Positions 11,359 to 59,503 of a DNA stretch of 63,433 nucleotides are shown piece by piece. Where the stretch lies: positions 1 through 63,433 of IMG/VR virus record IMGVR_UViG_3300044609_000580. One strand, 5' to 3'. The notes below the pieces were generated by a model that did no database searches, had not been told where the DNA came from, and saw only the letters and a list, made by a program, of their open reading frames with translations. Position numbers and translations under genes: made by a program. Each line of letters starts with the position of its first letter. The stretch's first letter is position 1. This stretch comes from a virus. Taxonomy: Duplodnaviria > Caudoviricetes.

Positions 11359-11687
11359 TATTTGGTTACCTCCGGATTAATTACGACGATTCCTTCAAGG
11401 ACTCGCAGCGTTTCACCATCGCCTGTAATTTCGATATCGTATACATATCTACCTGCTTTTATTGCTGATGTTTGAATAGCGGTCAATGAAATTGTAACCT
11501 CGCCATCTTCTGGTAGAGAAACCGCTGCAGTAAAATTTATAGAAGTATTAGTGTAATATGATTTGCGCATTTGTGCTGCTACAGTATAATCGGAAAGATC
11601 TTTCGGATCTCCATTCTGATCATTTACTACAAGAGATAAAGAAAAAGTTGTTCCCTGATCAATGTATATATTTTGAATTTGTGCCAT
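11358..11687 (-). CDS. BppU-N-like Ig-fold virion protein
   Basis: IDQGTTF...GRYVYDIEI...RVLEGIVVINPEVT pattern common in T4-like fibre clusters. Confidence 0.75.
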   Translation of the reverse strand: MAQIQNIYIDQGTTFSLSLVVNDQNGDPKDLSDYTVAAQMRKSYYTNTSINFTAAVSLPEDGEVTISLTAIQTSAIKAGRYVYDIEITGDGETLRVLEGIVVINPEVTK

Positions 11688-11714
11688 CTGGAACCCTTAT
11701 AAATTATACGGTAA

Positions 11715-11722
11715 TATTTATA
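11715..11722 (-). promoter_or_regulatory. T4-type late promoter TATAAATA for the fibre/neck operon
   Basis: Exact consensus in the divergent intergenic gap. Confidence 0.75.
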
Positions 11723-11737
11723 ATAACTGAGAATACT

Positions 11738-12415
11738 ATGCAAACGATCTTGATGTTAAAATATGGCAAAAAATATTCTGCGTCGGAAGTAAACAGAATA
11801 GTAAATGATACTGAGAGAAAATACAACTATGCTTGTATCACCGACGATCCAACAGACCTAGATCCAATCATAAAAATAATTCCAATGCCAGAGGGTATAG
11901 ACGGTCATTGGATTAAAATATGGATGTATACTCTAGAAGGGTTGGGAGACACTTTATATCTGGATCTTGATGTTAGAATACAAAAAAATATTGATCATTT
12001 GTGGAATTACCTTGACATTTATCCAACAATAGCGTATACTTATTGGAAGAATAAAGAGTTTCCGAATATTGTTGGGGAAACACATAGTATGCGCTTCTTG
12101 AGTAATTATAACTCAAGCGTCATGATGTGGAAAGAAGGTACTGTTAACCATATTTGGGAGCACTTTCAAACAGACCCAGATTACTTCATGGTTAAATACT
12201 TTGGTGATGATAGATTTTTATGGCATGAAGATTTTAGATTCAATTACTTTCCAAAGGGCGAGATTTATTCTTTTGTTTATGGAGCAGATTATTATGGAAT
12301 TGACGACCACAACGAATCATTTTACTATCGACCGAGTTACACGATAGCATTACTAAACGGATTGGATCAATTCCCTGGAGCAGATAAAGAATATGATGAA
12401 CTTCGTATGCATTAA
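11738..12415 (+). CDS. Glycosyltransferase-like protein (GT-A, DxD), paralog 1
   Basis: LKYGKKY, CITDD, LYLDLD, NSSVMMW and GDDRF motifs; start at MQTIL. Confidence 0.75.
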   Translation: MQTILMLKYGKKYSASEVNRIVNDTERKYNYACITDDPTDLDPIIKIIPMPEGIDGHWIKIWMYTLEGLGDTLYLDLDVRIQKNIDHLWNYLDIYPTIAYTYWKNKEFPNIVGETHSMRFLSNYNSSVMMWKEGTVNHIWEHFQTDPDYFMVKYFGDDRFLWHEDFRFNYFPKGEIYSFVYGADYYGIDDHNESFYYRPSYTIALLNGLDQFPGADKEYDELRMH

Positions 12416-13154: not shown

Positions 13155-13972
13155 GAGTAAATTACGTTTGCTGTAAATGGGGTACCAAATATGATGCCGA
13201 TTTTGTCAATCGACTTTATCGAATGGCAAGGAAGCACACCCCAGATAACTTTGAGTTTCACTTCTATTGCTATACAGACAACAGTGAAGGTTTTGATAAT
13301 GAGATTAAAGTCATCGACTTCCCAGACATTCCCGACATCCACCCCAAATACTGGTTTGGATCAGATGATTTCAAATACGGCATGGCACGTTGTTGGGACA
13401 GACCAAAGACGTTCATCTTCAATACACATAACTTCGCAGACGATAAACCCACTGGAAGATTTGTCTTTTTCGACCTTGATGTTATCATTCAAAATGATTT
13501 GTCGCCGATCATCACTTATGACCTAGAGAATCCTACCAAGTTGCGTTCGTGGTGGCAAGACCCTCGACCTATGAAGTCTCGTAACTTTAAATTGGCGCAT
13601 GGCGCATATACCAATGGCAGTTGTATGGTGTGGTCAGATGATCAGACAGAATGTATCTGGCACGATGTTCTGGAACATCAAGAACGTATTTGGTTTACAT
13701 TCACCGACGGAACAGACAACTATCACAGTTGGCGTTGGGGAGACTTTAGCAACACTCCACTCTGGGCACACTTCCCAAGCACATTTGCCTATTCATACAA
13801 TCGTGGTCGTAACTGGCACGAAGACGATTTAGAAGTCGCTAAATATAGAAAAGACTGTATCCTCTGCGTATTTAATGTAGACCTGCTTCCGTTCAAGGAT
13901 AATAGCAGAGGTAAAGTGAAGCAGGAGTCCTTAGTTGACCCTGATCTGTTAGAACATTGGAACGTAGAATGA
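13151..13972 (+). CDS. Glycosyltransferase-like protein, paralog 3
   Basis: CCKWGTKY, CYTDN, FFDLDVII, NGSCMVW and GTDNY motifs; ATGA overlap with the previous stop. Confidence 0.75.
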   Translation: MRVNYVCCKWGTKYDADFVNRLYRMARKHTPDNFEFHFYCYTDNSEGFDNEIKVIDFPDIPDIHPKYWFGSDDFKYGMARCWDRPKTFIFNTHNFADDKPTGRFVFFDLDVIIQNDLSPIITYDLENPTKLRSWWQDPRPMKSRNFKLAHGAYTNGSCMVWSDDQTECIWHDVLEHQERIWFTFTDGTDNYHSWRWGDFSNTPLWAHFPSTFAYSYNRGRNWHEDDLEVAKYRKDCILCVFNVDLLPFKDNSRGKVKQESLVDPDLLEHWNVE

Positions 13973-14652
13973 TTAATATATACACAGTGAAGTGGGGATT
14001 TAAATATGATTCAGAACATGTTAATCTTATCCTCGAGCAATGTAAAGAACATATAACAACTGATTTCAATTTTTACTGTTTAACTGAACATTCTGTTGGT
14101 TTGCACCCAGAAGTCAATGTAATTCCTCTTCCTGCTGATAACTACTATGAAAAATGGTGGAATAAACTATACTTGTTTAATCGACGAGTCGTTCGACAAC
14201 AGGGCGAAAAACTATTTCTCGATTTAGATATTGGTATTCAAAATAATATTGATTGTATTGTAGACCACGATCCAGAAGATGGTTTAACTTTTGTTCGTAC
14301 TCACTGGCACAATATGAATAAAATGAAAGAGGATACGAAAGAGATTCCATACAAATATACGGATCTAAATTCTAGTGTGTTGAGATGGAACGACAGATTA
14401 GATATCGATAAGATTACCAAATTCGCTAGAGATTATCCTGATCAGATGTTTTATTATTATCGAGGTCTTGATAATCTTTTTGGTCATCAGAGAGATCGTC
14501 TACTAAAAATCAATCATTTCCCTGATGGTTGGGTATACAGTTACAACTACGGATATATTTGGCCGACAGATGTGAGAGAACAAGTTATCCGCGAAGAGCC
14601 TCTTATTTGTTTATATGATTCAATGGAAAGACCACAAGATGTTAAACTATAA
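13969..14652 (+). CDS. Glycosyltransferase-like protein, paralog 4
   Basis: VKWGFKY, WWNKLYLF, FLDLDI, NSSVLRW and GLDNL motifs; ATGA overlap. Confidence 0.75.
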   Translation: MINIYTVKWGFKYDSEHVNLILEQCKEHITTDFNFYCLTEHSVGLHPEVNVIPLPADNYYEKWWNKLYLFNRRVVRQQGEKLFLDLDIGIQNNIDCIVDHDPEDGLTFVRTHWHNMNKMKEDTKEIPYKYTDLNSSVLRWNDRLDIDKITKFARDYPDQMFYYYRGLDNLFGHQRDRLLKINHFPDGWVYSYNYGYIWPTDVREQVIREEPLICLYDSMERPQDVKL

Positions 14653-15299: not shown

Positions 15300-16004
15300 A
15301 TGGCAAGAGCAAGGGTCGTTGCGCCACCACCACAAGATTATATTCCAGAACCACTAGTATCGACTCCTCCACTGGAAATTGTTGAAGAACAAGAGTGGAT
15401 AGACGGGAATATGCAAGAAGCGGTAGAGGTAGAAACAATTGAGCCTTCTCAAGAAGAACTTGATAGAGAAAGAATCGCACAAGAAAAACATGAAGAATTG
15501 CAGCGGCAGAAACTTGCAGTAGAAGAAGAATCGAAAATAGTAGCAGAAACAATTGCTAAAGCAAAAGAGATTGTAGAAAATCCTCCTGTCGTAATTGAAA
15601 CTGTTGTAGAAACTGTGCATGTGACAGATCCGCAATTGATGGAAGAATTGCGGATTCTTAGAGAAGTAAATGAAAAACTTGCCGCAGAAAAAAAGGCAGC
15701 AGAAAAGGCACGAGAAGATCAAATCGTAAAGATGCGCCAACAGGCAACTGACCAGAAAGGTAGTCAGTTGAACATGGTGCAGGCACGGAAACCTACTTTA
15801 TTGAGCAGAATAAAAGATTTCTTTAAACGCAGAAGAATTGAACTTGCTACCATTCCTCGCGCAAACTACGAACAAGCAATTATAAACCAAGCATCAGTTG
15901 CCGTTCCAAAGATGCTGGATGATATTGAAAAGATGCACGAAAGTTTGACTATCTTAGAAGAACTATTGGCAAAGCATAAAGAACGTCAAAAGATTAAAGA
16001 TTAA
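15300..16004 (+). CDS. Hypothetical Glu/Lys-rich coiled-coil protein
   Basis: Long ORF abutting its neighbour; helical composition. Confidence 0.65.
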   Translation: MARARVVAPPPQDYIPEPLVSTPPLEIVEEQEWIDGNMQEAVEVETIEPSQEELDRERIAQEKHEELQRQKLAVEEESKIVAETIAKAKEIVENPPVVIETVVETVHVTDPQLMEELRILREVNEKLAAEKKAAEKAREDQIVKMRQQATDQKGSQLNMVQARKPTLLSRIKDFFKRRRIELATIPRANYEQAIINQASVAVPKMLDDIEKMHESLTILEELLAKHKERQKIKD

Positions 16005-16678
16005 CCGAAGTGAGAAGCATCCTCGCCCGAGATGTCTTCGATCATGGAACGCCAGATATCGAGATGCGGAACAACGTAACCTAATGTCAATCTCTTTGCA
16101 GAATTGCCACAACAATGATAGATGATTTTATTTGGATCGCTGCGGTCGCCAAAATATCCAACCTTACATGACCATCCTTTTGGATCGACCATAGTAACAA
16201 CTTCTTTTGTTACTGGATCTAGGTAACGAAAGTAACCACCGTTTTCTTCTGAATTATATGTAATTAGAATATTATATCCTGCTGCATTCCAGTTGGTATG
16301 CCAACCCATAAAACCATTTTCAGGGTAGTATGTGAAGACCGCATTATTTTTTGCACCAAGGTAATACATCAATTCTTTATTAGTTTCTTGTTGCCTTCTT
16401 CCATATTCAGAAGGGAACCATGGTTGCCCATGCGCTGTGCCCATGTCGGTACACACTGCGACTTCTGGAAACCCAACATGTTTCTCGCCCTTGTTAACAA
16501 TATGATTTAAGTACTGCTGATCAGTAGCAGTATCCACATTCAATCCACCAGCACGCTTTTCTTGCATGTCTTGTGGTCCGAGAACAAGATGTTGATCATT
16601 TTGCTCAAAGAACCATTGGGTAAATGGTTCTAGAATATCACTTAGTTCTTTAGAAACTGAATTTGTAAATTGTAGCAT
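16001..16678 (-). CDS. 2OG-Fe(II) oxygenase / cupin-like protein
   Basis: YYPENGFMGWHTN, GGYFRY, YHCC and RLTLGY double-stranded beta-helix pattern; start at MLQFTN. Confidence 0.6.
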   Translation of the reverse strand: MLQFTNSVSKELSDILEPFTQWFFEQNDQHLVLGPQDMQEKRAGGLNVDTATDQQYLNHIVNKGEKHVGFPEVAVCTDMGTAHGQPWFPSEYGRRQQETNKELMYYLGAKNNAVFTYYPENGFMGWHTNWNAAGYNILITYNSEENGGYFRYLDPVTKEVVTMVDPKGWSCKVGYFGDRSDPNKIIYHCCGNSAKRLTLGYVVPHLDIWRSMIEDISGEDASHFG

Positions 16679-16689
16679 GTGTGTCCTGT

Positions 16690-17388
16690 TTAACTCAATA
16701 AGGAATGTGGAATTGTGTAATGATAAATTACTATTGGTTGACCCTGTAATTCTTCTTCTTTGTAACCTGAAACAAAGTTCCATCTGGCATCTGGGTCGGG
16801 GAATCTCGCAGTCTTGACACCAAAATCAAAGTGATTTAGTAGTCTCCACATTGTGAATGTGTCCCACTGCAGAGCAGATTCAGGATAATGCTTACGATCC
16901 CATCCTGGTTTATTCTGTTCCCAATACTCATCATACCAAGCACGCATTAGTTTTAGTGTATGATCATTATTTCGATAGACGAACAGACCACAATGCTCAG
17001 TCATTTCTTCAGTGTCTGAGAGTTTAGTTATTGCTGCATTGTATGGACGATTAGCAGTAAACAACACATCTACATCTTCGGGAATCTGATCAAAGATCTT
17101 AGTTATGTCTTCATGTTCAACTTCCGTATCACAATCCATGTAGACGGTCAAGTCATATGGTGTCTGATCAAGCGCCCACAGTTTTGCTCGCTTGTCTCTC
17201 GGAACATTTTCAGTAATGATTGTATCGAAGATTTCATAATCATCTGGTTGAACCCATTCTTCATGTGTAAAGAATGTGATATGTGCATCAGGATAAAAGT
17301 CGCGCAGAGATATAGCAGAATTCCTTGCTGCTCTGTAATACCCCTTTCTTACTGTTGCGACGTAGAGGAAACCATTATTCGGCATCAA
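16690..17388 (-). CDS. Nucleotide-diphospho-sugar transferase-like protein (GT-A)
   Basis: GFLYVATV, SAISLRDFYPDAHITFFT, TPYDLTVYMDCDT (DxD) and IYHYT motifs. Confidence 0.75.
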   Translation of the reverse strand: MMPNNGFLYVATVRKGYYRAARNSAISLRDFYPDAHITFFTHEEWVQPDDYEIFDTIITENVPRDKRAKLWALDQTPYDLTVYMDCDTEVEHEDITKIFDQIPEDVDVLFTANRPYNAAITKLSDTEEMTEHCGLFVYRNNDHTLKLMRAWYDEYWEQNKPGWDRKHYPESALQWDTFTMWRLLNHFDFGVKTARFPDPDARWNFVSGYKEEELQGQPIVIYHYTIPHSLLS

Positions 17389-17830
17389 CTGCTTCTCTGA
17401 TAATAGCAGTGTTTGCTTCTTCTTGCTGTAGAAGAATGACAGTATAGGCAGTTACTTCCATGATGTTCTTTGCTTTACGAATCTTAGACTTCAACTCGCG
17501 ATTCTTCGAGGACTTGATCAAGTCGATTTCAAATGCATCTAGTTTCGCAGCGAACAGTTGCTCTTGCTGCATACGTGTCTTATCAACTTTCTGCCGTTCA
17601 ATATTATGTTTGATATGTTGGTTGCGGTCATCAAACCGTTTCTTGGTATTCGCATCAATTTGCTCGACGCTAAACTTCTTCATCAATTCGTCAAAGTCAC
17701 GATTAGTTCCATCGTTCATAATCGATGCAGTTGCTCGTTTACCCGTATCAGGATAAACGAACTCTGCGATGACATGTTGTTTTTCTTTATTCGCCCAGTA
17801 AGGGTTTTCAATAGTTCGCGTAGTACTCAT
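17375..17830 (-). CDS. Hypothetical protein
   Basis: GGAG SD, clean ORF; LFAAKLDAFEIDLIKSSKNRELKSKIRKAK. Confidence 0.7.
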   Translation of the reverse strand: MSTTRTIENPYWANKEKQHVIAEFVYPDTGKRATASIMNDGTNRDFDELMKKFSVEQIDANTKKRFDDRNQHIKHNIERQKVDKTRMQQEQLFAAKLDAFEIDLIKSSKNRELKSKIRKAKNIMEVTAYTVILLQQEEANTAIIREAVDAE

Positions 17831-17862
17831 TCAAATCTCCATTAAAAAATATTTTTCTCACT

Positions 17863-17895
17863 ATTATATATACGCTATTTTATCCCAAAAGTCAA
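17863..17895 (-). promoter_or_regulatory. Sigma70-type promoter
   Basis: TTGACT-N17-TATATA (with adjacent TATAAT); CTTGACTT also occurs at 53411 and 55434. Confidence 0.6.
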
Positions 17896-17901
17896 GGGTT
17901 T

Positions 17902-19569
17902 TTATGCTGTGCGAACCCAAAGTTTTATCGTCGATACAGTTTCTTTTGTTTCAATCACTGTTGCGCCAGAGAAGTTATTGGAGTATGTTCCACTGAAGTT
18001 TCCAATGTAGTTACCTGTATAGTTTCTAGAACCAGCATAGAACCCAGTGTAGTTTCCTGTGAAGAAACCTGTGTAATTTCCAGTGTATGTTGCAGTTCCT
18101 GCAAAGAATCCAGTGTAAAACCCTGTAAAGTATCCAGTATAGTTACCAGTGTATGTTGCAGTTCCAGCATAATTACCAGAGAAGAACCCTGTGTAGGTCC
18201 CAGAATATGTTCCGGAGTAGGTTGCTGGTCCAACATAGTTACCAGTAAAGTATCCTAAGTATGTACCGAGATATGTTCCAGCATAGTTGCCCGCATAGTT
18301 TCTAGAACCTGAATAGTTTCCAAGGTAATTTCCGCTGAACGATCCTAGGTAGTTGCCAACGAAATTACCACCGACGAAACCACCGAAGAATAGAGTATAT
18401 GTTCCAGAGAAGTTTCTCGAATATGTCCCTAGATAGTTGCCCGCATAGGTTCCTGCATAGTTTCTAGAACCAGCATATGTTCCTGTGTAGTTACCACTAA
18501 AGTTTTGCGTGTAATTTCCAGAATAACCAGCAGTACCGACATAGTTGCCGACATAGTTACCAGTGAAACCTCGTGAGTAAGTTCCTGAATAGTTTGCTGG
18601 TCCAACATATCCACCGCTAAAGTTATTTGCGAATGAACCAGAATATGCTCCTGAATAGTTTGCTGGTCCAACATATCCACCGCTAAAGTTATTTGCGAAT
18701 GCACCAGAATATGTTCCAGCATAGTTCGCAGAATAATTTCTAGATCCGGAGAATGTTCCAGCATAGTTACCGCTGAAGTTACCCAGATAGTTCTGTGGCG
18801 TTACTTGTTCGCGTGTATCTGCAAATTGATCACCAAGTTCGACCCACGTTCCACCAGAAACAGGAGCAGATGATTGCACCTTATACAATCCTACGCCACT
18901 ATCAACAATTCTGTTTCTGAAATTCGGAAGCATCTGTAGAATTTCCGAAGATGACATTTCTTTGACATCTTTGGTGTCAATAAGTTTCAGTGGTTTTAAA
19001 TTGGAGTCTGAAAGAGTAGTCGCAGCAGTTTTCTGCCACAGATATGTTACTGTGTTTCCACCATTGGCAACATCTGTTAGAGTATAACGCGAAACCCATG
19101 TGCCGCCTGTTGGTGCAGTTGGTTGTAGTCTATACTGTCCTGCAGTATAAGTTGTTTCGGAGACCATCGCATTAATAGCATAATCCAGAATCTCAGTATC
19201 AATCTGAGCATCTGTCAGTTCTTTGATACCGTCGTCATATTTTAGAGGACGATTAGTAATATTTTCCGTAGCAACTGCAGTAACCTGTTTAGCAGTATAT
19301 GTAACAGTGTCAACAGCACCAGTTGCAGGATGAGTACCAGTTGCTTCTTGGCGATCCGTATCTGAGAATGTTCCGATTGTAGTACCAGAACCACTGTTGT
19401 TTGTGGTAATGTTTATTTCTGCCGTGCCTGTACCATCTGAGTTTGCACCAAAGGAAACTGTCAGAGTTTGTGCGATATAGTTCTTCACCTCTTCAACAGA
19501 CATCTGCTGGAGACCCTGCCAGTTTGCAGCAGAAACGGGTGTTGCTGAAGATTTATTTCTCAATACCAT
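17902..19569 (-). CDS. Putative virion protein with a long N/T-Y/F-x-G tetrapeptide-repeat insert
   Basis: 555 aa; N-domain and C-terminal strand paralogous to 19572..21959; lies in the structural operon. Confidence 0.75.
   Translation of the reverse strand: MVLRNKSSATPVSAANWQGLQQMSVEEVKNYIAQTLTVSFGANSDGTGTAEINITTNNSGSGTTIGTFSDTDRQEATGTHPATGAVDTVTYTAKQVTAVATENITNRPLKYDDGIKELTDAQIDTEILDYAINAMVSETTYTAGQYRLQPTAPTGGTWVSRYTLTDVANGGNTVTYLWQKTAATTLSDSNLKPLKLIDTKDVKEMSSSEILQMLPNFRNRIVDSGVGLYKVQSSAPVSGGTWVELGDQFADTREQVTPQNYLGNFSGNYAGTFSGSRNYSANYAGTYSGAFANNFSGGYVGPANYSGAYSGSFANNFSGGYVGPANYSGTYSRGFTGNYVGNYVGTAGYSGNYTQNFSGNYTGTYAGSRNYAGTYAGNYLGTYSRNFSGTYTLFFGGFVGGNFVGNYLGSFSGNYLGNYSGSRNYAGNYAGTYLGTYLGYFTGNYVGPATYSGTYSGTYTGFFSGNYAGTATYTGNYTGYFTGFYTGFFAGTATYTGNYTGFFTGNYTGFYAGSRNYTGNYIGNFSGTYSNNFSGATVIETKETVSTIKLWVRTA
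18583..18714. repeat. Near-perfect 66-bp tandem duplication (22 aa)
   Basis: tcctgaatagtttgctggtccaacatatccaccgctaaagttatttgcgaatg at 18583 and 18649. Confidence 0.9.
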
Positions 19570-19571
19570 TT

Positions 19572-21959
19572 TTATGCAGTCCTAATCCACAATTTAATTG
19601 TCGAAACTGTATCTTTGGTCGCTTGAATTGTTGCGCCAGAGTAATTTCCTGTAAAACTATTTATATAACTGCCTGAATAAGTTCCAGAGTAGTTTGTTAG
19701 ACCAGAGTAAAACCCAGTATATGCTGTTCCTACACCAGAGAAAAATCCTGTATAAAATCCAGTATAGTTTGGTCCAGGAGTCGGTGATCCTGGAATCGTT
19801 CCAGCGTAATTCCCAGTATAGTTTGTAGGAGTCGGCGATCCTGGAATCGTTCCAGTGAAGTAACGTGTAAACGCTGATGAATATTGCGCAGAATATGCGG
19901 TTGGTCCTGCAAGATAATAACCAGTATAGTTTACGCCTCCAGTAAAGAATCCTGTATAATTACTGCCTGGAATTGATGGGCCTGCATAAAATCCAGTAAA
20001 GTATCCTGTATAATTTGTCGGTACAGGCGCTCCAGTATAATATCCAGTAAAGTTTGTTGGAGTCGGAGATCCAGTAATCACACCAGAATAGTAACCAGTA
20101 TAGTTTGGACCAGGAGTTGGAGCTCCCTGATAATACCCAGTAAAGTTTGTCGGACTTGGTGGAGAAATGATTACTCCTGCATAAAACCCAGTATAGTTTG
20201 GTCCTGGACCATTATATGAACCAGCGAATGGGATTGGACCAGATGTGTAGTAACCAATATAGTTTGGACCTGCTGGTGCTGGACCAAGATAATAACCAGT
20301 AAAGGCTGTTGGTGTCGGGGTGGTGATATTAGCAAAAAAACCAGTGTAGAATTGTGGTACTGGTGTTGGACTTAGATACTCACCAGTAAACGAATCTCCT
20401 GGTTCTCCAGGTGCTAAGTCTGGACCTTGATAGTATCCAGTATAATACACCTGCGCTGGAGTTCCTTGGAAATATCCAATGTAGTTTACTGGTCCACCTG
20501 GAAGAATTCCCTGATAGTATCCTGTGAAGTATTGGAATGTTCCTGGTTCAACGCCACTAGCATATTCACCAGTAAACGTTCTCGTCCCAGTATAAAAACC
20601 AACGTAGGGAACTCCTGCACCCTGATAATATCCAGTAAAGGTTGTTGGTGTTGGAGATCCAGGAATGACGCCAGAATAGAAACCAGTATAGTTTGGTCCA
20701 GGAGTTGGAGCTCCCTGATAATATCCAGTAAAGGTTGTTGGTGTTGGAGATCCAGGAATTACGCCAGCATAGAAACCAGTGTAGTTTGGTCCTGGTGCAA
20801 CTCCAGCAAAAAACCCAGTATAGGTACCAGTATAGTTTGGTCCAGGAGATGGTGGTGTACCATACGTTGGTCCAGAATATGGTGCTGTACCCGAATAATA
20901 TCCTGTATAAGAACCACCTGGACCTGTGTAATAACCAGTGTAATATAGTATGTTTACGCTGGTATATGTTGGTCCAGGAGTTGGTGATCCAGGAATGACC
21001 CCAGTATAGAAACCAGTATAGTTTGGTCCAGGAGTTGGTGATCCAGGAATTATGCCAGCATAATTTCCAGTAAAGTTACTACTAAAGTTTCCTGCTGCAG
21101 AGTAAGGCGCAGAATATGGGATTGGACCAAGATAATTACCAGTATAATTACCAGTAAAATTACCGCTGTAATTGCCGACATAGGTTTCCGGAGAAACTTG
21201 TTCGCGAGTGTCTGCGAATTGTGCGCCCATTTCAACCCAAGTGCCACCTGAAGGGGCTGTCGATTGGATCTTATATGTAGCAATACTTGTGTCAATAATT
21301 CTATTGCGGAAGTTAGGAAGCATTTGCTCGATTTCAGATTCAATCATCTGCTTACAATTGCTACCATTGAACAATTTTAAAGGAGTATAATCTGAATTCG
21401 GCAGCGAAGACGCTACGGTTTTCTGCCACAAATATGTTACTGTGTTTCCACCCTGTGCAGTATCAGTAATTGTATATCTAGAAACCCAAGTACCACCAGA
21501 TGGTGCAGTTGGGGATAAGCGATACTGACCTGCAGTATATGAAGATTCAGCAGCCATTGCTTCAACACAGAGATCCATGATACTATCAATATCACCGTCC
21601 GTCATTTCTTCTAGACGAGAATCCCATGCTAATGGTCTGTTGGTGATGTTTTCAGTCGCAGCAGCAGTAACCTGCTTAACCGTATATGTTGTTGTAGAAA
21701 TTGCACCAGTTGCTGGATGCGTTCCAATAGATTCAGTTCTTGTCGTATCAACGAACGTACCGATCGAAGTCCCAGAACCTGAGTTATTTGTCGTGACGTT
21801 TATTTCAGCAGTACCAGTACCATCTGTTACTGCAGCAAACTTTTCTGTGATAACATTGGCAATATAATTTTTTACCTCTGCGTCGGTCATGGTCTGCAAA
21901 CCGCTGATGTTTGCAGAAGTGATTGGGGACCCTGTTGCCTTGACCTTTAGAGGATTCAT
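19572..21959 (-). CDS. Putative virion protein with a Pro-rich PTPGPNYTGFY / YTGYY repeat insert
   Basis: 795 aa; paralog of 17902..19569; ends KDTVSTIKLWIRTA. Confidence 0.75.
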   Translation of the reverse strand: MNPLKVKATGSPITSANISGLQTMTDAEVKNYIANVITEKFAAVTDGTGTAEINVTTNNSGSGTSIGTFVDTTRTESIGTHPATGAISTTTYTVKQVTAAATENITNRPLAWDSRLEEMTDGDIDSIMDLCVEAMAAESSYTAGQYRLSPTAPSGGTWVSRYTITDTAQGGNTVTYLWQKTVASSLPNSDYTPLKLFNGSNCKQMIESEIEQMLPNFRNRIIDTSIATYKIQSTAPSGGTWVEMGAQFADTREQVSPETYVGNYSGNFTGNYTGNYLGPIPYSAPYSAAGNFSSNFTGNYAGIIPGSPTPGPNYTGFYTGVIPGSPTPGPTYTSVNILYYTGYYTGPGGSYTGYYSGTAPYSGPTYGTPPSPGPNYTGTYTGFFAGVAPGPNYTGFYAGVIPGSPTPTTFTGYYQGAPTPGPNYTGFYSGVIPGSPTPTTFTGYYQGAGVPYVGFYTGTRTFTGEYASGVEPGTFQYFTGYYQGILPGGPVNYIGYFQGTPAQVYYTGYYQGPDLAPGEPGDSFTGEYLSPTPVPQFYTGFFANITTPTPTAFTGYYLGPAPAGPNYIGYYTSGPIPFAGSYNGPGPNYTGFYAGVIISPPSPTNFTGYYQGAPTPGPNYTGYYSGVITGSPTPTNFTGYYTGAPVPTNYTGYFTGFYAGPSIPGSNYTGFFTGGVNYTGYYLAGPTAYSAQYSSAFTRYFTGTIPGSPTPTNYTGNYAGTIPGSPTPGPNYTGFYTGFFSGVGTAYTGFYSGLTNYSGTYSGSYINSFTGNYSGATIQATKDTVSTIKLWIRTA
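20620..21050. repeat. Internal DNA duplications with 93-bp and 54-bp periods
   Basis: ccctgataatatccagtaaaggttgttggtgttggagatccaggaat at 20620 and 20713; ttggtccaggagttggtgatccaggaat twice near 20969 and 21023. Confidence 0.8.
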
Positions 21960-21960
21960 T

Positions 21961-22443
21961 TTAGTTTAACCTGTTACCACTCGAGTCATAAACAATTAAA
22001 CTTGTTACGCGATACCAATCTACAGCATCTTGTGCAACAAATTCAACAGACGAATATGGTGATAAATTAACACCAACATTGACAGTTCCACCGTCAATAA
22101 CATCTGAAGTATTTGGATACACCTTAATGGTAACTGCTGTAGTATTAATAACCTTGACGGTCAAACCTGCAGCAGCAGTAGGAAGTTTTACACCCTGATT
22201 TGCTGTTGCTGATGTGATCATGTTGACAGTTTTTGTCAGCGCAGTCGCATCGCCTTGGGTAGTTCCCGCTGCTGTGACTGTTCCTGCAACCGATTTGGTT
22301 AGACTTCCAGTAAGTGTCAAATCTGCAAAGGATGGACTTGACCCTGATTCATACTTATCTGAATTCAAATTGCTGAAGTTAGTATCAACTTCAGTATTCG
22401 TCAGCGGAGTCCCCTTTACAGATCTAAGGGTAATTGTGCTCAT
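21961..22443 (-). CDS. Putative virion fibre-associated protein
   Basis: LRSVKGTPLTNTEVDTNFSNLN N-terminus typical of phage fibres; C-terminus VYDSSGNRLN resembles that of 7280..8524. Confidence 0.7.
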   Translation of the reverse strand: MSTITLRSVKGTPLTNTEVDTNFSNLNSDKYESGSSPSFADLTLTGSLTKSVAGTVTAAGTTQGDATALTKTVNMITSATANQGVKLPTAAAGLTVKVINTTAVTIKVYPNTSDVIDGGTVNVGVNLSPYSSVEFVAQDAVDWYRVTSLIVYDSSGNRLN

Positions 22444-22454
22444 GCTTTTTATCC

Positions 22455-22664
22455 TTATTTCTGTAGTATTTGTGTTAGTAAGTTTTTAATCTCAATCATT
22501 TCATTCTTAAGATTATTTATATCGTCTCCATATGATTCGATTTGTTTCATATGTTGTTTGCGAGACTTGTATGCCCGTAGAGCAGGCAGGTCATTCGAAA
22601 GTATTGCCTTCGAATGACCATCACGTTCATACTTTGTAGTATCAGTTAATTTAATTCTTGTCAT
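22455..22664 (-). CDS. Small coiled-coil hypothetical protein
   Basis: RDGHSKAILSND...DINNLKNEMIEIKNLL; abuts the giant structural gene. Confidence 0.65.
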   Translation of the reverse strand: MTRIKLTDTTKYERDGHSKAILSNDLPALRAYKSRKQHMKQIESYGDDINNLKNEMIEIKNLLTQILQK

Positions 22665-22665
22665 A

Positions 22666-25600
22666 TTACACCTGCAACGCGATTGCTCTTAGTTCTCTGA
22701 CTTTAGGAACTACAGAACTGTTTGTTGACAGAGGAACAACCTTAACTGCGAATGTCTTATAACCAGTAAAGGTCGCAGATCCAACAGTATACTCTAAGAC
22801 CCCTGCGTTTTTATTTGCATCTGGAATTGTATACGCATACTCTACAAACCCAGAACGAGCAGTGCTGTCTAATGGCACTGTGTTTGTTTCGAGTTCGATC
22901 CACTCACGATTATCAAAGTTTGATGCATCGGTTGCATTCTGGAATTTACCATATACCTTTACATCACATCCTGTAGGAATCAGATTACTTAGATAGACCT
23001 TTAGATCTTCAGCATCTTGACCGTCATCCAAGACAACACGACGAGAGATATACTTCGACGCCGCAGCACCATTGTTTGTATCTTCATCAGTATCATCGTT
23101 GTTAATATCGTTGGCGATTGCGATGATAGAACATTTTCTGGTATCAATTACAGGAGAAACAGTTGATGTTTGTGTTGACATACCTGCTCTGATTGTAAGC
23201 GATTTACCACCAGAAAGATCTGCTTGCTCGTTAGAATATGAATATATTTGTGCTTCATATGACAATTCATGCTCCTGCCCGAAGTTATACCCTTCGAACG
23301 TTGATCCTGCACTAGTCGCACCTGTCGCAGTTGGTGCGACAGACCAAGTTATCGACGCAGGCGTATGATCAACAGTACCGATATTTGTTTCTAGGACATT
23401 CAATTGCTTGTTTTCGATTTCAGAAATAAATCCATTCGAAGATTCGTTGCTGATAATATCACCCGCAGCAAAAGATCCCTTGGTAATTAATACCTTAGCA
23501 ACATGATACAGCGAGTCATATTGTTTAACAAATCCTCTGTTCAACACAACTGACACAGCGGCCGCAGTCCCAGAACCACTGACAATCGTCAACGTTGGAT
23601 TGCTGGTATATCCGCCACCAAGATTTGTCAACTCAATATCAGTAACAACACCACCAGAAATAGTAACATTGACTGTAGCACCAGTTCCGCCACCGCCTGT
23701 TAAACTGTGCGCAACAGTTCCATTGGTATAACCAGAACCAGCATTGGTAATATTGAATGAGAATCCATGCACTTCATCACCAGCAAGGTAATATCCATTG
23801 GAGAATGAAGAAAACTTCAGATAATCCATATTCATGTTCTTCATTACTACTGTGCCAACAGTATTAATTTCGAAATCTGCGCGACGTAAAGTAAACTTAA
23901 TATCTTCTTTTTGATATGCAGTCCACGATCTGTTATTGGCAGATGTGAAAAGAACACCGATATTTGGTTGCTCAGAAATTCTATTTTGAGTACCCAGTTC
24001 GTTTTCGCCCAACTCAGAAACCCAAATATTATAATTTGGATCGTTACCTGCTGGAAGCAGAACAAAGCAGTATTCTGTATTGTTCTGTAGATGCACTGGC
24101 GATGGGAAGGTGAACGTTGTTGCTGTCGTTGCATTCTCACTAACGAGAACGTCTGCAGGATTTAACGTTACTTCACCAAACGGAATTACTTTATTCCCAG
24201 GATAACCATTAATCACTTCTCTGATTTGAAGAGTGATTGGTGCCGTTGAAGACTTGGTTCTAAAGAATACATCAAGTTGAGTTGTGTAGCAACCAAATGG
24301 CATTCCATCAACATAGAAAGTTTGCGCAATAGGATCCGTAGCAACTATAGGTGTCGTACAAGGATCCATCTGGAAACATCCAGCAGGAATGACAGTTGTT
24401 TGACCGCCAGCACCAAAGGTAACATCAAACCCACCTAAAGTGAGATCTACTTCTGTCTCAGGCCAGCAAATCTCTTGTAGAGCACATGGATCAGGAGTAG
24501 GTGGATCCAGAATAACTACTTCTGTTGGTGGAATAGGCGGCGGTGGTGGCGTCGGCGGTGGCGGCGGTGGAGGTGGCGGTTGAATCGGCGGCAGTACAGG
24601 AGGTTCCGGATCAACTGGAGGAAACACAGGAGGCACTGGATGGACAATCGGAGGAAATGGTTCGTCAATAATAACAGGAGGATCTCGAGTTATAGTTGTA
24701 ATATTAGTATTATTAATATTTGTTACGTTAGTGACCGTATTATCAATGTTTGTGATGTTATTCACAGTAGTAAACGTATTGTTTACCGTTCTTTCTATAA
24801 CACCAACTGTTCTGTCTGCGATTCTATTAACAGTCGAAGAAGTTTCGCGGAAAGATCTTGAATCCGATACACTGTTTAATTCTACATTTGCAACTCTCGT
24901 TGAAATAATAGAATCTTGCACAGACTGAGACAGTCCATTTGCCGACCAAGTCTTGTTTGATGCTGTCGTGATAAACTGATCACGATTGTATTCGTCATCA
25001 CAAAGACGGAAGTTTTTATCGCCTGTTCTAAAGGTTCCTGCTGGAATTCTAAATTGTCCGACACAAACACCTTGTGCATTTGTGATCAGTGGTGCACCAT
25101 ATGCACCATCAGCATATGATGAATATGTTGCTGGATCAAATGGTTTCAGATCAGTTGACGGATCGAAGTCAAGTGGTCTACAATGTGCAGCAACAGCAAC
25201 ACCGTCAAAGAATGGGAACACACGAGTATTCGGTTTCATTCTTTGTGCAATAAATGTCACAATAACAGAACGCATAAAAGGAACAATTGACGTATTCGTT
25301 ACACGAGCACCAATTCTCTGCGATTGTGTTTCTGGTGTAACTGATAGCGAAACTCCTTGACGAGTTTGGCGCTGCTCAGTTGTTGTTGTTACAACTTGGG
25401 TTTGTTCCTGAAGTAAGGTATCACCACTGATGCGAGTATTACCTGCTACAGTTTGCGATGATTGTCCAACAGTTGTTCTTCCCGTAACAGTATCTTGCCA
25501 GTCACCCCATTGAGTTCCCCATGCATCTGCCATGGTTTCCCATGCATCATAATTGCCATCGAAGTTTACGCTAACATCTGGTTGTTGTGTGGTATCCGTC

Positions 25601-28600
25601 CAGTTATCGACTGGTGGATCTAGTTCCATATTTCCGATGTAATTGAATAGTAATTCACCGACGCAATTTCTAGGTTTCGACGCTGAGGTGCTTTTGATCA
25701 TCTCAACATGTCTGTATGGCAGAGTTATTAAATCACCAGTTTTAAATATATTAGTTGATGCAGCAGAATCTACTCCGATATCGATATTTTCGAGGTAGAA
25801 AAATGGACGCATTTCTTTTTTCGCAGGATCGATTGAGATGTGATATGCAGAATCAAAAACGTTACCAACGTTATGACCTGTAAATGCATCCACTAGAATA
25901 CCATTCTTAAAGCGATCCAACCCAGAACCATCTGGAATTGATAGATCGCTTGCTGATTTTTCTAGAAGTGAAAGCGAAGTGTAATATTCTAGACGGTTTA
26001 TGCGCTGTTCCAGAACACCAATATCGCGCATAGTATAGCGTCGATTGTCAACAGTACGGAATTTAACACCGTAATCTGGACGATTCGCAGTTTTTGCAAC
26101 ATTTGGCGCAAGAGATGGATATGGTGGAATTTCAATTGTTGCCAACGACATCGCATTTTCAGGTTCTGCAGGAATCGTCGGAGTCAGAGATGGTGTTCCA
26201 TAAATAGAACTAAATACGCCCTCTGAGTCAATGATCAATCGATCAGTTCTACCAAGATAATATTCTAGATCAGTAATAAACTGCTCAGTTGGAACTGGGT
26301 TTGTAATACCAATTGATGGTACAGCAATAATATCGTTATTTTCTACTGGGTTAGTTGTGGCAGATCCAACAACAGTAGCATTTGCCGATGCATCAGCCAA
26401 ACGAACACGGAAATCTAACGTATCTCGCAGATCATATGATTGTCCAGTTGCTGGTGAAAGATAGACTGGAATGTCTTGTGTCTTGAGAGTTCCTGCAGAT
26501 ACACCAGTATCGTCGATCGGATACGAATCAACTGTGAAGAAAGTTCCATCAGCAGAAGCACCGTCGTGGGTGAAGTAGTCTAACTTGATAACAAGTTTCT
26601 TATTAACAAGCGACGGAGCAGAAGGTTTCTTAACGATTCTAGCATTGCGATATTCAGTGTCGCGTTGACCGTTATCTAGAGTAAACGAAGACGCAACATC
26701 TACGCCAGCAGCAACAACTGCAGAATCAGCATCGGTATTAGCACCAATAAAGATATTCTTAATTCTATAAACATCTGAGAGACCAAGCGAATACGTGCCA
26801 CCACTTGTTGACGGGTGAGTATTAGTATTGACGATTACATAACGATTTTCACGAAGAACTTTAAGAACAGGATTGGCGTTTGCTGTTTGAACATTTACAT
26901 ACACTTTAACCTGTTTTGGCGCAGAAGTAACATTTCCTGTCAGATCTATAGTTATAGAGGTCGCTGAGTTTTTAGTAAATGCTGCGCCTGAAAGATTGAT
27001 TACTTCACCAATAGCACGAACAGTACCGTTAATCGTTGCCGCTTCCTTCATCACCATCGTGAAGTTATTATTGATTATTGTAGAAGTAAACGAATCATAT
27101 GGGAAAGTCTCATCACCACTTAGTGTGAGAGTAACCTGCCCTGTTGCACTGAGTTCCCCATCGAATTCTTTAGTATAGATAAACGAGTTATCATACACAT
27201 CATTCGGAGCAATAGTTTTCGTTGCTCTTGCTGGAACTCTAAAGAGAGAGTTGTTGAAACTGCTCTCTTGGAGAATCGCATTACCGTCAGTCAGAACTAC
27301 ATCTGCGTGAAAATCAGCAGTATCATTATAGTATATCCCGCGAACATCTTTAAAATCTGCGCTTGCCATTTGAATATCATACAGATATATTCTATACTGT
27401 GCAGCAGCAGTTCCAGGAGTTCCTGACTCATACACAATTTGTTTTACTCGAGCAGTACCAACTTCAGTTCCAGGAACAGTAGCAGCAGAATATGTGCCTA
27501 AAGTAATTGCACCCTTCGCAGTGTCGCGAAGACTTACGGCAGCGCCACCATTAAGATCCAACAAACCACAGAATTCGTCAACTAGAACATAGTTACCATA
27601 TGCTGTGCTGATTGGAACTTCTTGTTGATTTACTGTGGTTAGACCCTTGGGTACAATAACATATTCTGTTTGGAAAGTCTCGTGTTCGAACCCACGAACA
27701 TATGCCTTACCTGCTTCCAGACCGATCGCAAGAAGATCTGCGCTTCCACCACGTTCTGGGTCAACAGTGTTCAGTTCTCTTAAACCATTATTACCATCTA
27801 CGTTTAGATGTTCTTTGATCAGAACAGGGAATTGTCTTACAGCATAGTTACCAGACTCATCATATGTGCGTCTCGCCATATTTTTACCGAGTTCGCCGTA
27901 AATATTTGTAGTATAAACTCTTTGAACGCTACCTGAGACAATATCAACTAGTTGATTGAACGTAGATGGTATGGTGTCAGTTGGTTCATACGCAACGAGT
28001 GTAGTTGAGACTTGGTATCTATCTGCTCCAGGAGCAGCATAGTTGAAGGATCCTTGTGCTGGATCGAGAAGAGTTTGATCATCTTCTGGAGAAATTGTGC
28101 TTTCTACAATTTCAAACCCAACTTTTAATGTCGGATATTTTGAGTATTTAGAAAGTATGATTGTTTGTGTTGTATGGTTTACGAATTTACCATCAAGATA
28201 GACAATACCATCTTCAACGGTTAAGGCAGAAGAAAGACCCCAGTAACTGTTGATTGGTTCTGCTTCATCATATGTGCTATCAACAACAAATGTATCGCCG
28301 TTTCTGCCTGTATTCGTAGAAGTTACAGTAAGAGTTTCACCTCCAGAAAAGTGGACTGCGGTAGATTCACCATCACCACCAGTATAGCGAAGATACAATG
28401 TTTTTAGATTTGGAGATTCTGCTTCAGTACCAGTCGCAGTGTCTATGATTACCGCAGTAATTCCTGTTGTTGCACCAGTTACAGTGTCTCCAACATAATT
28501 TACTAATAGATTATTTTCTACACCTGCATCTGCGATTTTAACAAATGCTCTCTCAGAATCTAGTTTAAATTCACAACCTTTGACAACCGAACCATTCTTG

Positions 28601-59409: not shown

Positions 59410-59503
59410 AGATGAACGGGTCTCTCTTTGACAATTCTTTAAATCTTTTCTTCAATTTCCGACGATGCCACCAGTTATAGATTTTATCAATTAAATTTCG
59501 CAT
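59402..59503 (-). CDS. 33-aa basic peptide ending RDPFIYD, not in the ORF track
   Basis: MRNLIDKIYNWWHRRKLKKRFKELSKRDPFIYD; overlaps both neighbours and fills the gap. Confidence 0.75.
   Translation of the reverse strand: MRNLIDKIYNWWHRRKLKKRFKELSKRDPFIYD

Follow-up and report, generated by a model that had tools for sequence, protein, structure and literature searches.

A putative fold-back fibre protein with a Tyr/Gly tetrad repeat in an uncultured T4-like phage

To our knowledge, phage fibres are built as trimeric beta-helices, beta-spirals, coiled coils or collagen-like rods. Stalks that fold back on themselves are found in the arms of SMC and Rad50, in colicin Ia and in streptococcal antigen I/II, and these are alpha-helical or combine helix with polyproline. 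T4 gp37, as described in PMC6957217, is a trimer whose collar D10 consists of residues 811-881 and 1010-1026 with the needle D11 between them; the needle, held by seven iron ions on histidines, is the receptor-binding end. According to PMC6989145, the P2 domain of perforin-2 has an extended hairpin (45 A, tip LKIF) that is needed to bind bacterial-type lipids.

Here we describe P0001, a protein of an uncultured T4-like phage encoded in a window of 63,433 nt, by which we mean the whole stretch of DNA that was analysed. We think it probable (roughly 70%) that P0001 is a fold-back fibre protein, in which a base knob carries two antiparallel arms of ~140 residues held in register, and that it serves adhesion.

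The gene, its repeat and its base domain

The P0001 gene belongs to the tail module. It falls in the slot that holds gp9-12/wac in T4, with gp8-like genes to one side and gp13/14-like genes to the other. The gene and its parts are listed in window coordinates, from the start of the coding sequence.

17902..19569, minus strand: whole gene of P0001, an ORF of 555 aa (base domain, Tyr/Gly repeat with predicted fold-back, C-terminal strand)
19270..19569, minus strand: base unit 1, aa 1-100, strand-strand-helix-strand-hairpin (AF2 pLDDT about 90, DSSP)
19006..19269, minus strand: base unit 2, aa 101-188, ending in the short hairpin TWVSRYTLTD-VANGGN-TVTYLWQKT (AF2/DSSP)
18796..19005, minus strand: N-terminal part of base unit 3, aa 189-258, ending in the outgoing strand GGTWVELGDQFADTREQVTP (AF2 and alignment)
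18385..18795, minus strand: outgoing (N-terminal) arm, aa 259-395, 32 tetrads
18739..18744, minus strand: outgoing-arm kink SR276-277
18661..18666, minus strand: outgoing-arm kink PA302-303
18595..18600, minus strand: outgoing-arm kink PA324-325
18583..18714, minus strand: 66-nt (22-aa) unit present twice in tandem within the outgoing arm, the copies 97% identical (Tandem Repeats Finder row 18555..18726)
18529..18534, minus strand: outgoing-arm kink TA346-347
18463..18468, minus strand: outgoing-arm kink SR368-369
18367..18396, minus strand: tip TLFFGGFVGG, aa 392-401, a turn motif kept across the family
17965..18384, minus strand: returning (C-terminal) arm, aa 396-535
18301..18306, minus strand: returning-arm kink SR422-423
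18223..18228, minus strand: returning-arm kink PA448-449
18157..18162, minus strand: returning-arm kink TA470-471
18032..18169, minus strand: second 66-nt array, in the returning arm, 79% matches (Tandem Repeats Finder)
18091..18096, minus strand: returning-arm kink TA492-493
18025..18030, minus strand: returning-arm kink SR514-515
17905..17964, minus strand: C-terminal strand ATVIETKETVSTIKLWVRTA, aa 536-555, predicted to re-enter base unit 3 (AF2)

The repeat covers 277 aa (17965..18795, minus strand), is bounded by DTREQVTP and ATVIETKE, and parses into a leading Q, 63 tetrads of the form x-[Y/F]-x-G, a central FVGG and ten 2-residue kinks. A preliminary description of this DNA had claimed about 280 aa of 4-residue periodicity at 17965..18800; both the periodicity and the start are confirmed, and the end was placed 5 nt too far. 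The kink order that it gave, SR PA PA TA SR / SR PA TA TA SR, is exactly that of our parse, and the hydrophobic LFFGGFVGG that it reported at the centre is found there within TLFFGGFVGG. It had also described a recent 66-bp duplication in one arm. The duplication is real and a 66-nt array is present in the other arm too, but "recent" is doubtful because the duplicated blocks also occur in relatives whose overall identity is only 74-88%.

The tetrad periodicity is far beyond chance. Aromatic pairs at a spacing of +4 occur 54 times in the repeat (18.3 +/- 3.2 after shuffling, maximum 30), and an aromatic residue is followed by G at +2 57 times (16.0 +/- 3.1, maximum 28; 2000 shuffles in each case). 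The composition is 22% G, 26% Y+F and 35% N+T+S, and the sole charged residues are six Arg. Five tetrads and a kink together make a super-period of 22 residues. Counted from the family boundaries, the left and right arms have 143 and 140 residues. Each arm has its SR kinks at distances of 26 and 118 residues from the centre, and the xA kinks lie at 48, 70 and 92 on the left and at 52, 74 and 96 on the right. When the aromatic pattern of this one sequence is correlated with itself, a direct repeat gives r=0.87 (lag 146) and a mirror about the exact midpoint gives r=0.74. Thus, in the P0001 sequence alone, the direct-repeat reading fits at least as well as the mirror.

The base has roughly 280 residues and, in the AF2 model, three similar units. 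The order strand-strand-helix-strand-hairpin is predicted three times over at a pLDDT of about 90 in both P0001 and a shorter relative, P0017 (70-residue arms), and judged from this order of secondary structure the modelled base is a three-unit pseudo-threefold domain. At the sequence level, units 1 and 2 share no significant similarity (z 0.0). Unit 3 with the repeat excised aligns to unit 2 with a local score of 77.5 (z 8.3), which sets the repeat at the turn equivalent to VANGGN of unit 2; the repeat replaces the turn of the third-unit hairpin. The C-terminal strand is homologous to TVTYLWQKTA of unit 2, and its residues L550, W551 and R553 are invariant or nearly so among relatives. AF2 pairs the two flanking strands, E249-269 and E525-553, with high confidence to ~aa 260 and from ~aa 535 (pLDDT >85 up to aa 260 on the outgoing side and 94-96 over aa 541-555 on the returning side).

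Structural comparison of the base, made with the P0017 model, returned seven chains at Z >=2. The first five are MABP-type (Z 7.5, 7.5, 6.0, 5.7 and 4.0), and the next unrelated row has Z 2.4. The best two are 8b6v_A (rmsd 3.8, 122 aligned) and 2qp2_A (rmsd 3.3, 105 aligned), both at Z 7.5, a middling value where the comparison tool calls a Z of 8 clear; 3tow_A (Z 6.0) and 6sb1_A (Z 5.7) follow. The P0001 model gives similar Z values for MABP. We found no MABP match for P0001 at the sequence level in Pfam (E up to 0.01) or, by phmmer, in the PDB.

The genes around P0001 are conserved together with it.

19572..21959, minus strand: tandem paralog P0002, 795 aa, with the same base (65% identity) and C-tail
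16001..17830, minus strand: three genes (151, 232 and 260 aa) downstream, conserved in company with the fibre genes
21961..22443, minus strand: conserved 160-aa gene between a DUF4815 giant and both fibre genes

P0002 carries a 518-aa Tyr/Gly repeat broken by Pro-rich linkers, and the midpoint is precisely where its best whole-length mirror axis falls (r 0.42, n 259). In 48/52 loci with any hit, the fibre gene is followed by homologs of the 151- and 232-aa genes, down to ~30% identity. Against Pfam, nothing reaches its cut-off for the three downstream genes; the 232-aa protein gives weak glycosyltransferase rows (E 0.03-0.11). The 160-aa gene lies upstream of the paralog in those close loci that reach that far, and its product has no Pfam or PHROG family.

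Arm lengths, tip and kinks across the family

P0001 itself has no family in Pfam (E up to 0.01) or PHROG, and phmmer against PDB chains gave no match save a chance row (E 0.73). Megablast of 17000..22500 against GenBank phages found nothing, and tblastn against the same set found only Phage C48C1 (OQ984149.1), at 27.7% identity. The giant C48C1 protein combines multiple repeat blocks with domains outside the repeat, and no simple mirror axis was found in it. Foldseek searches of the PDB and BFVD returned nothing at E up to 0.001, the T4 protein 37 fragment in BFVD reaching just E 0.064 (TM 0.11), and the ESM Atlas returned unnamed viral clusters only. A full-text literature search turned up no account of a repeat or fibre of this kind in the papers covered, and the word "hairpin" does not occur in the accessible part of a tail-fibre atlas preprint (10.1101/2024.10.28.620165).

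Unannotated relatives are abundant, with at least 1129 among the matches listed and 292 clusters of the base domain at 50% identity. Our sample comprised 267 proteins, of which 220 have both repeat boundaries and 91 have a single tip candidate. From 76 distinct 18-mers the tip consensus is [L/R/V/I][Y/F][Y/F][G/S/A]G[F/Y][V/A]GG, in which the search pattern itself accounts in part for the two aromatics and for the SG/GG after them.

In the 91 single-candidate proteins, the difference between left and right arm (L-R, with boundaries as set here) is 0..6 in 65/91 and exactly 3 in 42/91, where about 3.3 would be expected for a tip placed anywhere in the repeat. The equal-arm proteins cover repeats of 23 to 288 aa, in 39 distinct lengths. 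On independent IMG/VR contigs, a difference of exactly 3 was found in 20/54 distinct repeats of 159-561 aa. We also scanned for mirror axes without using the tip motif. The best axis lay at one fixed offset in 63/201 distinct repeats, where chance gives ~4 per offset, and among these 63 are 15 Pro-rich repeats like that of the paralog. A tree of the base domain by itself requires 61 or more arm-length changes among the 85 proteins with L-R 0..6. P0004, which is 86% identical to P0001, differs from it by two 4-aa gaps, one on each side of the tip. The shortest repeats in the family, of 23-55 aa, are too short for anything except a hairpin.

The remaining 26/91 proteins fall outside L-R 0..6, and many of these are wrong picks of tip or boundary. 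Real differences in one arm occur in P0036 and P0089 (+22 aa), in P0041 and P0137 (+3 tetrads) and in P0023; the relatives derive from metagenome assemblies, in which repeats can be collapsed. Comparison within the family shows tetrads and 22-residue blocks gained or lost in both arms together, with the arm register apparently upheld by selection. Taken together, these data strongly support an out-and-back antiparallel topology, and it is the relatives rather than the P0001 sequence alone that point to it. The preliminary description had proposed an antiparallel hairpin with arms of about 140 residues each, which agrees with the arm lengths counted here and with the equal arms of the relatives. 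Paired indels in homologs, which it had named in advance as a test, are seen in the equal arms, the motif-free axis and the P0004 gaps. Indels in one arm only, which it had named as contrary evidence, are confined to a minority such as P0036, P0089, P0041 and P0137; most testable arms are equal.

The kinks add a second line of comparison. In the relatives, an SR/TR kink of one arm has its counterpart at an identical distance from the tip in the other arm, and a T-type kink is faced by a P/A-type kink that lies 4 residues further out. Within the 20 commonest partner types, T-type kinks (TA, TS) pair with P/A/S-type kinks in 49/49 cases and with another T in 0, and the only like-with-like pairs at the +4 spacing among the partner types listed are PV with PV (4 pairs). 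Such facing would put SR opposite SR at equal tip distance and the hexads NYxG-T-x and NYxG-P/A-x exactly opposite each other. Where the two orders predict different architectures, mirror order beats direct order in 7/8 classes. By position alone, a strict mirror rule fits 111/262 kinks and a direct model with a free offset fits 191/262; because kinks are periodic, their positions alone fail to separate the two. Kink spacing is 22 in P0001, 26/18 in P0030, 6/14 in P0090 and 22/18/14 in P0110, and kinks are absent from P0043, P0050, P0149 and P0178.

Covariation of variable positions between the arms peaks at dR-dL = -1, +1 and +3, which were the top three in 198/200 bootstraps. Masking every residue up to 6 positions from a kink abolishes this peak, so the signal is not independent of kink pairing. 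A register with Tyr opposite Gly and a three-residue FGG loop fits the peak, and we do not claim it since the peak is lost on that masking.

Candidate structures of the stem

In the structure that we favour, the chain would leave the base and run out for ~140 residues as x-[Y/F]-x-G tetrads, reverse at the conserved aromatic/glycine tip TLFFGGFVGG, return for ~140 residues beside the outgoing arm, and re-enter the base as its last strand, with selection keeping both arms in antiparallel register. A beta strand rises 3.3-3.4 A per residue. With both arms as ordinary beta strands, the stem would be a two-stranded ribbon ~46-47 nm long, with Tyr/Phe alternating with Gly on one face and Asn/Thr/Ser/Ala on the other. 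A putative role for P0001 is that of an adhesion fibre or whisker on the virion, attached at the periphery of the baseplate or at the neck; the tail-module location, the gene order in 48/52 loci and the MABP beta-prism matches of the base all suggest this role. Paired indels would then tune fibre length, and the tip and the Tyr/Asn/Thr-rich sides would touch the envelope of the host first, through weak and multivalent contacts.

How the stem is held is less certain than its topology. One tentative proposal is a free-standing, single-chain, two-stranded beta-ribbon, a protein "stem-loop" zipped by the packing of Tyr over Gly and by a small pairing code at the kinks (SR with SR, T-x with P/A-x). 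Such a ribbon would measure ~47 nm in P0001 and several times that in relatives, its length would evolve one tetrad per arm at a time, and its tip would dip into the outer membrane or LPS of the host as the perforin-2 P2 hairpin does. It is also possible, although we hold this no more than loosely, that the topology is the same and the stem is not alone: hairpins of two or three chains would pack their Tyr/Gly faces, for example as a six-stranded gp37-like needle, or the ribbon would lie along a partner such as the paralog. Phage fibres are as a rule trimers. In T4 the needle D11 is inserted in a trimer collar, D10 (PMC6957217). A 46-nm two-stranded ribbon with an aromatic face would gain much from packing, and two paralogs with the same base are encoded side by side. 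However, the base is already pseudo-symmetric, with three units in one chain that bear a single long hairpin, and the P0001 repeat has no His, so that gp37-type metal sites are absent.

Other readings give up the extended hairpin. A compact repeat, which we judge unlikely, would be a beta-solenoid with ~22 residues per coil, or a paired ribbon wound as a two-start antiparallel solenoid, and the rod would measure ~6 nm rather than 46 nm. The 22-residue super-period of P0001 is consistent with this, as is the AF2 model, in which the part at pLDDT <50 (aa 263-532) has short strands with a 22-residue period and looks solenoid-like. Structural neighbours of that part are solenoids, bactofilin, LpxD, ice-binding proteins, LRRs, pentapeptide-repeat proteins and the S16 gp38 sandwich, all weak (Foldseek E at least 2, Z at most 6.6); the 6f45_D match (Z 6.6, 81 aligned) lies wholly inside it. 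All the model support for a compact form thus comes at pLDDT <50. In P0017, AF2 places strands in mirror fashion about the tip (274-282/370-378 and 313-318/332-337), also at low pLDDT. Since the arms of both models fall below 50, neither is usable for the stem and the solenoid look carries no weight either way; the AlphaFold check suggested in the preliminary description, which had named a predicted parallel beta-solenoid as contrary evidence, came out solenoid-like for one protein and mirror-like for the other. The antiparallel topology proposed there is supported; its thin single-chain beta-ribbon goes further than AF2, which is confident just for the base and the first stem turns. Against coils, the kink spacing varies across the family or kinks are absent, and members of 23-55 aa cannot coil. 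A plain parallel solenoid of constant one-way coils fits that spacing poorly, and it gives no reason for equal arms about a conserved central turn or for mirror-ordered, paired kinks. The two-start wound ribbon is compatible with all of these comparisons. A very improbable reading is that the region is disordered, sticky, low-complexity Tyr/Gly/Asn/Ser sequence, its halves kept equal by concerted evolution of two direct repeats. The near absence of charge (six Arg apart) and the low AF2 confidence would suit disorder, the two arms are alike as direct repeats, and P0026/P0031 and P0011 look like deletions between direct repeats. Gene conversion, however, would copy kinks in direct order, and the non-palindromic architectures are mirror-ordered with T/P complementarity. 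Disorder would also leave unexplained the strict tetrad phase, a tip at the exact midpoint over 39 lengths, and an insertion at a hairpin turn whose flanks are confidently paired.

The fold-back fibre that we favour appears to be a stalk of variable length in which a single chain pairs with itself. As in an RNA stem, the family shows time and again indels that compensate each other and irregularities that are complementary. If this is right, it would offer structural biology and protein design a new repeat architecture, give a readable rule for fibre-length evolution and a handle on host recognition by abundant uncultured aquatic T4-like phages, and provide an annotation for hundreds of "hypothetical proteins". 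Should the free-standing ribbon also be true, it would represent a novel fibre fold and a novel means by which phages adjust their reach.

Comparison with known systems

The preliminary description did not recognise the architecture among standard trimeric fibres. This is fair, and the fold-back topology as such has precedents in the gp37 needle and the perforin-2 P2 hairpin. Two repeat folds differ from P0001 at the level of the repeat. Polyglycine-II/polyproline-II bundles of the S16 gp38 type have Gly at every third position, and in P0001 Gly is at every fourth. Beta-solenoids with Tyr/Gly or Thr ladders (ice-nucleation, antifreeze, bactofilin) share short repeats, ladders and glycines with P0001, but they are one-directional, parallel coils of constant length and lack the central turn, equal halves and mirror-paired irregularities of the P0001 family.

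The beta-prisms of perforin-2 P2 and MABP proteins (2qp2, 8b6v and 3tow, which are the Plu-MACPF C-domain, Mp2Ba1 and MVB12B, respectively) resemble P0001 in being pseudo-threefold, with one unit that sends out a hydrophobic-tipped beta-hairpin. Compared with that of perforin-2 P2, the P0001 hairpin is ~10x longer, consists of tetrapeptide repeats, and lacks both disulfides and a basic character. The P0001 base differs from MABP by an extra 18-residue helix in each unit, and it is found in a phage structural module, not a pore-forming toxin. In the T4 gp37 needle and collar, as in P0001, a long element lies within a small domain and the chain runs out and back; P0001 differs in having no His in the repeat, no sequence match in the PDB, and longer arms of highly variable length. 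SMC/Rad50, colicin Ia and antigen I/II share the design of P0001, with both ends in one head, equal arms and a special apex. P0001 would build this design from a four-residue Tyr/Gly repeat instead of a helix, and no relationship to the fold-back coiled-coil stalks is implied.

Gene, repeat and relatives of P0001

The record spans 63,433 bases and is 39% complete according to CheckV. The protein under study, P0001, lies in tandem with a paralog, P0002:

17902..19569, minus: P0001, open reading frame of 555 aa
17965..18795, minus: repeat of P0001, 277 aa, from the sequence parse
19572..21959, minus: P0002, 795 aa, directly upstream of P0001; first 250 residues 65% identical

P0001 comprises a 258-aa N-terminal part, the 277-aa repeat and a 20-aa tail (ATVIETKETVSTIKLWVRTA). 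The repeat is built from 63 tetrads of the form x-[Y/F]-x-G, ten 2-residue insertions (kinks) and a central TLFFGGFVGG (the tip), which separates an outgoing from a returning arm. Our parse reproduced the kink order given in the preliminary description: SR, PA, PA, TA, SR before the tip and SR, PA, TA, TA, SR after it. Aromatic residues recur at +4 in 54 pairs (18.3 +/- 3.2 in 2000 shuffles), and glycine follows an aromatic residue at +2 in 57 pairs (16.0 +/- 3.1 in 2000 shuffles), a periodicity far beyond an effect of composition. Tandem Repeats Finder detected a 22-aa (66-nt) super-period, corresponding to five tetrads plus a kink, in both arms. The 66-bp duplication reported earlier is present as two copies in the N-terminal arm with 97% DNA identity, but its supposed recency is doubtful because relatives that differ by 12-26% elsewhere have the same duplicated blocks.

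Pfam and PHROG held no family for P0001 or P0002, a sequence search of the PDB gave no matching chain, and searches of published full text and family libraries yielded no description of such a repeat or fibre. GenBank phages provided a single distant match, in Phage C48C1 (27.7% identity). Metagenome collections contained at least 1129 relatives at E up to 1e-3 (among 7999 candidates scored), all without a name or labelled 'hypothetical', with repeats of 23 aa to several hundred; the base domain alone forms 292 clusters at 50% identity. C48C1 (Kyanoviridae) is the sole relative found in a named, complete phage genome. Its 3347-aa 'hypothetical protein' (OQ984149.1, 141011..151054) has a P0001-type base domain, a similar C-tail and long x-Y-x-[G/R] repeats with several non-repeat domains between them. 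The close relatives P0004 and P0007 carry an extra ~80-aa domain between base units 1 and 2, after ...TYTVKQVTA. In P0002, Pro-rich linkers (5-10 aa; VIPGSPTPGP, APTPGP) come between pairs of tetrads such as NYTGFYTG. Linkers of this kind are present in each half, and over the whole length the best mirror axis falls exactly at the midpoint.

Arm lengths and kinks across the family

The sequence of P0001 alone does not decide the topology of the repeat. Its aromatic pattern has a mirror axis at the exact midpoint (r 0.74), its halves are also good direct repeats (r 0.87 at lag 146), and its kink order is nearly palindromic and so compatible with both readings. Because P0001 by itself fits either, we took the question to its relatives.

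The repeat has a family-wide conserved turn motif, [L/R/V/I]-[Y/F]-[Y/F]-[G/S/A]-G-[F/Y]-[V/A]-G-G. Arms were measured from the point where the GTW...D[T/S] motif ends, with the last 20 residues as the other boundary; of 267 proteins, 220 had both boundaries and 91 had exactly one tip candidate. The left (outgoing) arm was longer than the right by 0-6 residues in 65 of the 91, against ~3.3 expected for a randomly placed tip, and by exactly 3 in 42; the arms of P0001 measure 143 and 140 residues. The repeats of these 65 matched-arm proteins come in 39 different lengths within the range 23-288 aa. On independent IMG/VR contigs the difference was exactly 3 in 20 of 54 distinct repeats (lengths 159-561 aa), and the remaining repeats are mostly of the Pro-rich paralog type, whose tip falls outside the search pattern used. 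When 49 offsets were compared, without reference to any motif, for the mirror axis that best fits the aromatic pattern, 63 of 201 distinct repeats, 15 Pro-rich ones included, shared one identical offset (~4 by chance). A tree of the base domain only requires at least 61 arm-length changes for 85 matched-arm proteins; therefore, the arm match is not one inherited accident.

The expectation, set beforehand, that insertions and deletions would be paired between arms held, with exceptions in a minority of relatives. Equal arms accord with it, and the repeat of P0004 (86% identical to P0001) differs by two 4-residue gaps, one either side of the tip. However, the outgoing arm is longer by one 22-aa block in P0036 and P0089, and one arm is longer by three tetrads in P0041 and P0137. 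Such differences could reflect bulges that are tolerated, transitional states or errors of assembly; most such clusters are known from a single contig (the source search for P0137 gave no contig counts). P0026/P0031 and P0011 have no tip motif, and their sequence jumps from an outgoing-arm SR block to the matching returning-arm block. They look like products of deletion by recombination between direct-repeat arms, or of collapsed assembly.

Kinks are also paired about the tip. SR/TR kinks lie equidistant from it in both arms, at 26/26 and 118/118 in P0001, at 26 and 48 in the relative P0017, and at 36, 54 and 80 in the relative P0030. Other kinks lie 4 residues further from the tip in the returning arm, with a T-type kink (TA, TS) opposite a P/A-type kink (PA, AK, PK). 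Laid out residue by residue, NYVG-TA and NYVG-PA hexads are exactly opposite and antiparallel, and the SR dipeptides face one another. A T-type kink takes part in 49 of the pairs that belong to the 20 commonest partner types, and its partner is P/A/S-type every time and never another T; at the +4 spacing, PV with PV (4 pairs) is the one type that joins like with like.

Mirror and direct predictions of kink order differ in 8 of the 18 class architectures with equal kink numbers. Mirror order with complementary partners was better in 7 of the 8 (for example, RRPR/RRTR, 4/4 versus 2/4; TPT/PTP, 3/3 versus 0/3), and direct order in one, P0114, which bears the PV kinks. Overall, the mirror reading scored 65 of 80 kinks and the direct reading 57 of 80. 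Inter-arm covariation at variable positions peaks at dR-dL of -1, +1 and +3, as expected if Tyr lies opposite Gly and the loop is FGG; we claim no register because the peak is carried by kink-adjacent residues.

Insertion point, topology and form

AlphaFold2 (AF2) modelled the first 260 and last 20 residues at pLDDT ~90 or higher. The base shows the same secondary structure three times over (strand, strand, 18-residue helix, strand, hairpin), and unit 3 without the repeat aligns to unit 2 (z 8.3):

Unit 2 hairpin: ...GGTWVSRYTLTD-VANGGN-TVTYLWQKTA
Unit 3 hairpin: ...GGTWVELGDQFADTREQVTP-[277 aa]-SGATVIETKETVSTIKLWVRTA

Thus, the repeat replaces a six-residue hairpin turn. The flanking strands, E249-269 and E525-553, are paired in the AF2 model.

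Three separate lines, namely insertion in a hairpin turn, equal arms and mirror-paired kinks, point to an out-and-back stem. They support the antiparallel hairpin first proposed, and comparison of relatives gives this topology, taken alone, a probability of about 0.9. The family data fit poorly with a plain parallel solenoid. In the low-confidence part of the P0001 model, short strands recur every 22 residues, and the weak structural neighbours of this part include solenoids, LRRs and the gp38 glycine sandwich; in P0017 the low-confidence strands are mirror-symmetric about the tip. The arms of both models have pLDDT <50, and neither carries weight as evidence on form. The paired ribbon could be wound up as a compact rod, and the lone thin ribbon of the preliminary description is likewise one among several forms that a hairpin could take. 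If extended, the out-and-back stem would measure ~46-47 nm.

Tail-module setting and known counterparts

The gene order around P0001, following the minus strand, is:

minus: tail-tube cap and hub, gp5-like lysozyme, gp25-, gp6-, gp7- and gp8-like baseplate genes (PHROG matches)
22666..28764, minus: 2032-aa DUF4815 protein (PF16075, E 3.3e-56; phrog_358)
minus: 160-aa gene
minus: P0002, then P0001
16001..17830, minus: genes of 151, 232 and 260 aa
11558..16004, plus: glycosyltransferase-like block, facing the 151/232/260-aa genes
two more fibre-like genes
gp13/14/15-like neck genes, terminase and sheath (PHROG matches)

The DUF4815 gene comes after the gp8-like gene and before the fibre genes, and its upstream position is kept in related loci. 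Of 52 IMG/VR loci with any match, 48 have homologs of the 151- and 232-aa genes after the fibre gene, among them loci only ~30% identical. From the conserved tail-module position and the linked genes we therefore infer that P0001 is a virion fibre or whisker; its location, partners and ligand belong to the same inference. The 151/232/260-aa genes and the glycosyltransferase-like block may form a fibre chaperone or modification set. Within the block, 11558..12415 and 13957..14652 match phrog_1962; the 232-aa protein has glycosyltransferase rows below threshold only. Such a fibre would first touch the host envelope with its Tyr/Asn/Thr/Ser surface and its aromatic/glycine tip, and paired indels would adjust its reach.

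Three other regions of the record bear mention:

7280..8524, minus: 414-aa protein with an N-terminal Major tropism determinant (Mtd) domain (PF18454, E 1.7e-14)
9418..11112, minus: 564-aa protein, right-handed beta-helix PF13229 just below cut-off (24.5 versus 25.9 bits)
57183..63044, minus: three tandem radical-SAM-like genes (phrog_14086) adjoining a Nol-like carbamoyltransferase (phrog_1601)

In a Bordetella phage, Mtd is the protein that a diversity-generating retroelement targets. The 564-aa protein, whose position beside the module is kept in many loci, may be a tail spike or depolymerase. The radical-SAM/carbamoyltransferase cluster is unusual for phages.

P0002 and P0001 take the place of gp9-gp12 and fibritin in the T4 gene order. 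Compared with 48,161 chains, the P0017 model had only 7 matches at Z >=2, and the first five are MABP beta-prisms, at Z values (up to 7.5) that count as middling on the search tool's scale. The P0001 model gave the same set.

First five structural matches of the P0017 model
8b6v_A, Mp2Ba1, Z 7.5
2qp2_A, Plu-MACPF, Z 7.5
3tow_A, MVB12B MABP, Z 6.0
6sb1_A, perforin-2 P2, Z 5.7
6u23_A, perforin-2 (MPEG-1) pre-pore, Z 4.0

According to PMC6989145, the perforin-2 P2 domain is pseudo-threefold and has a 45-A hairpin with a hydrophobic tip, which is needed to bind bacterial-type lipids. The P0001 base has no sequence match to P2 and, unlike it, has helices in its units; P2 is thus the nearest functional analogy and does not make P0001 a member of its family. 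Fold-back stalks and hairpin-bearing beta-prisms are already known as a category, and P0001 would be a variant of these.
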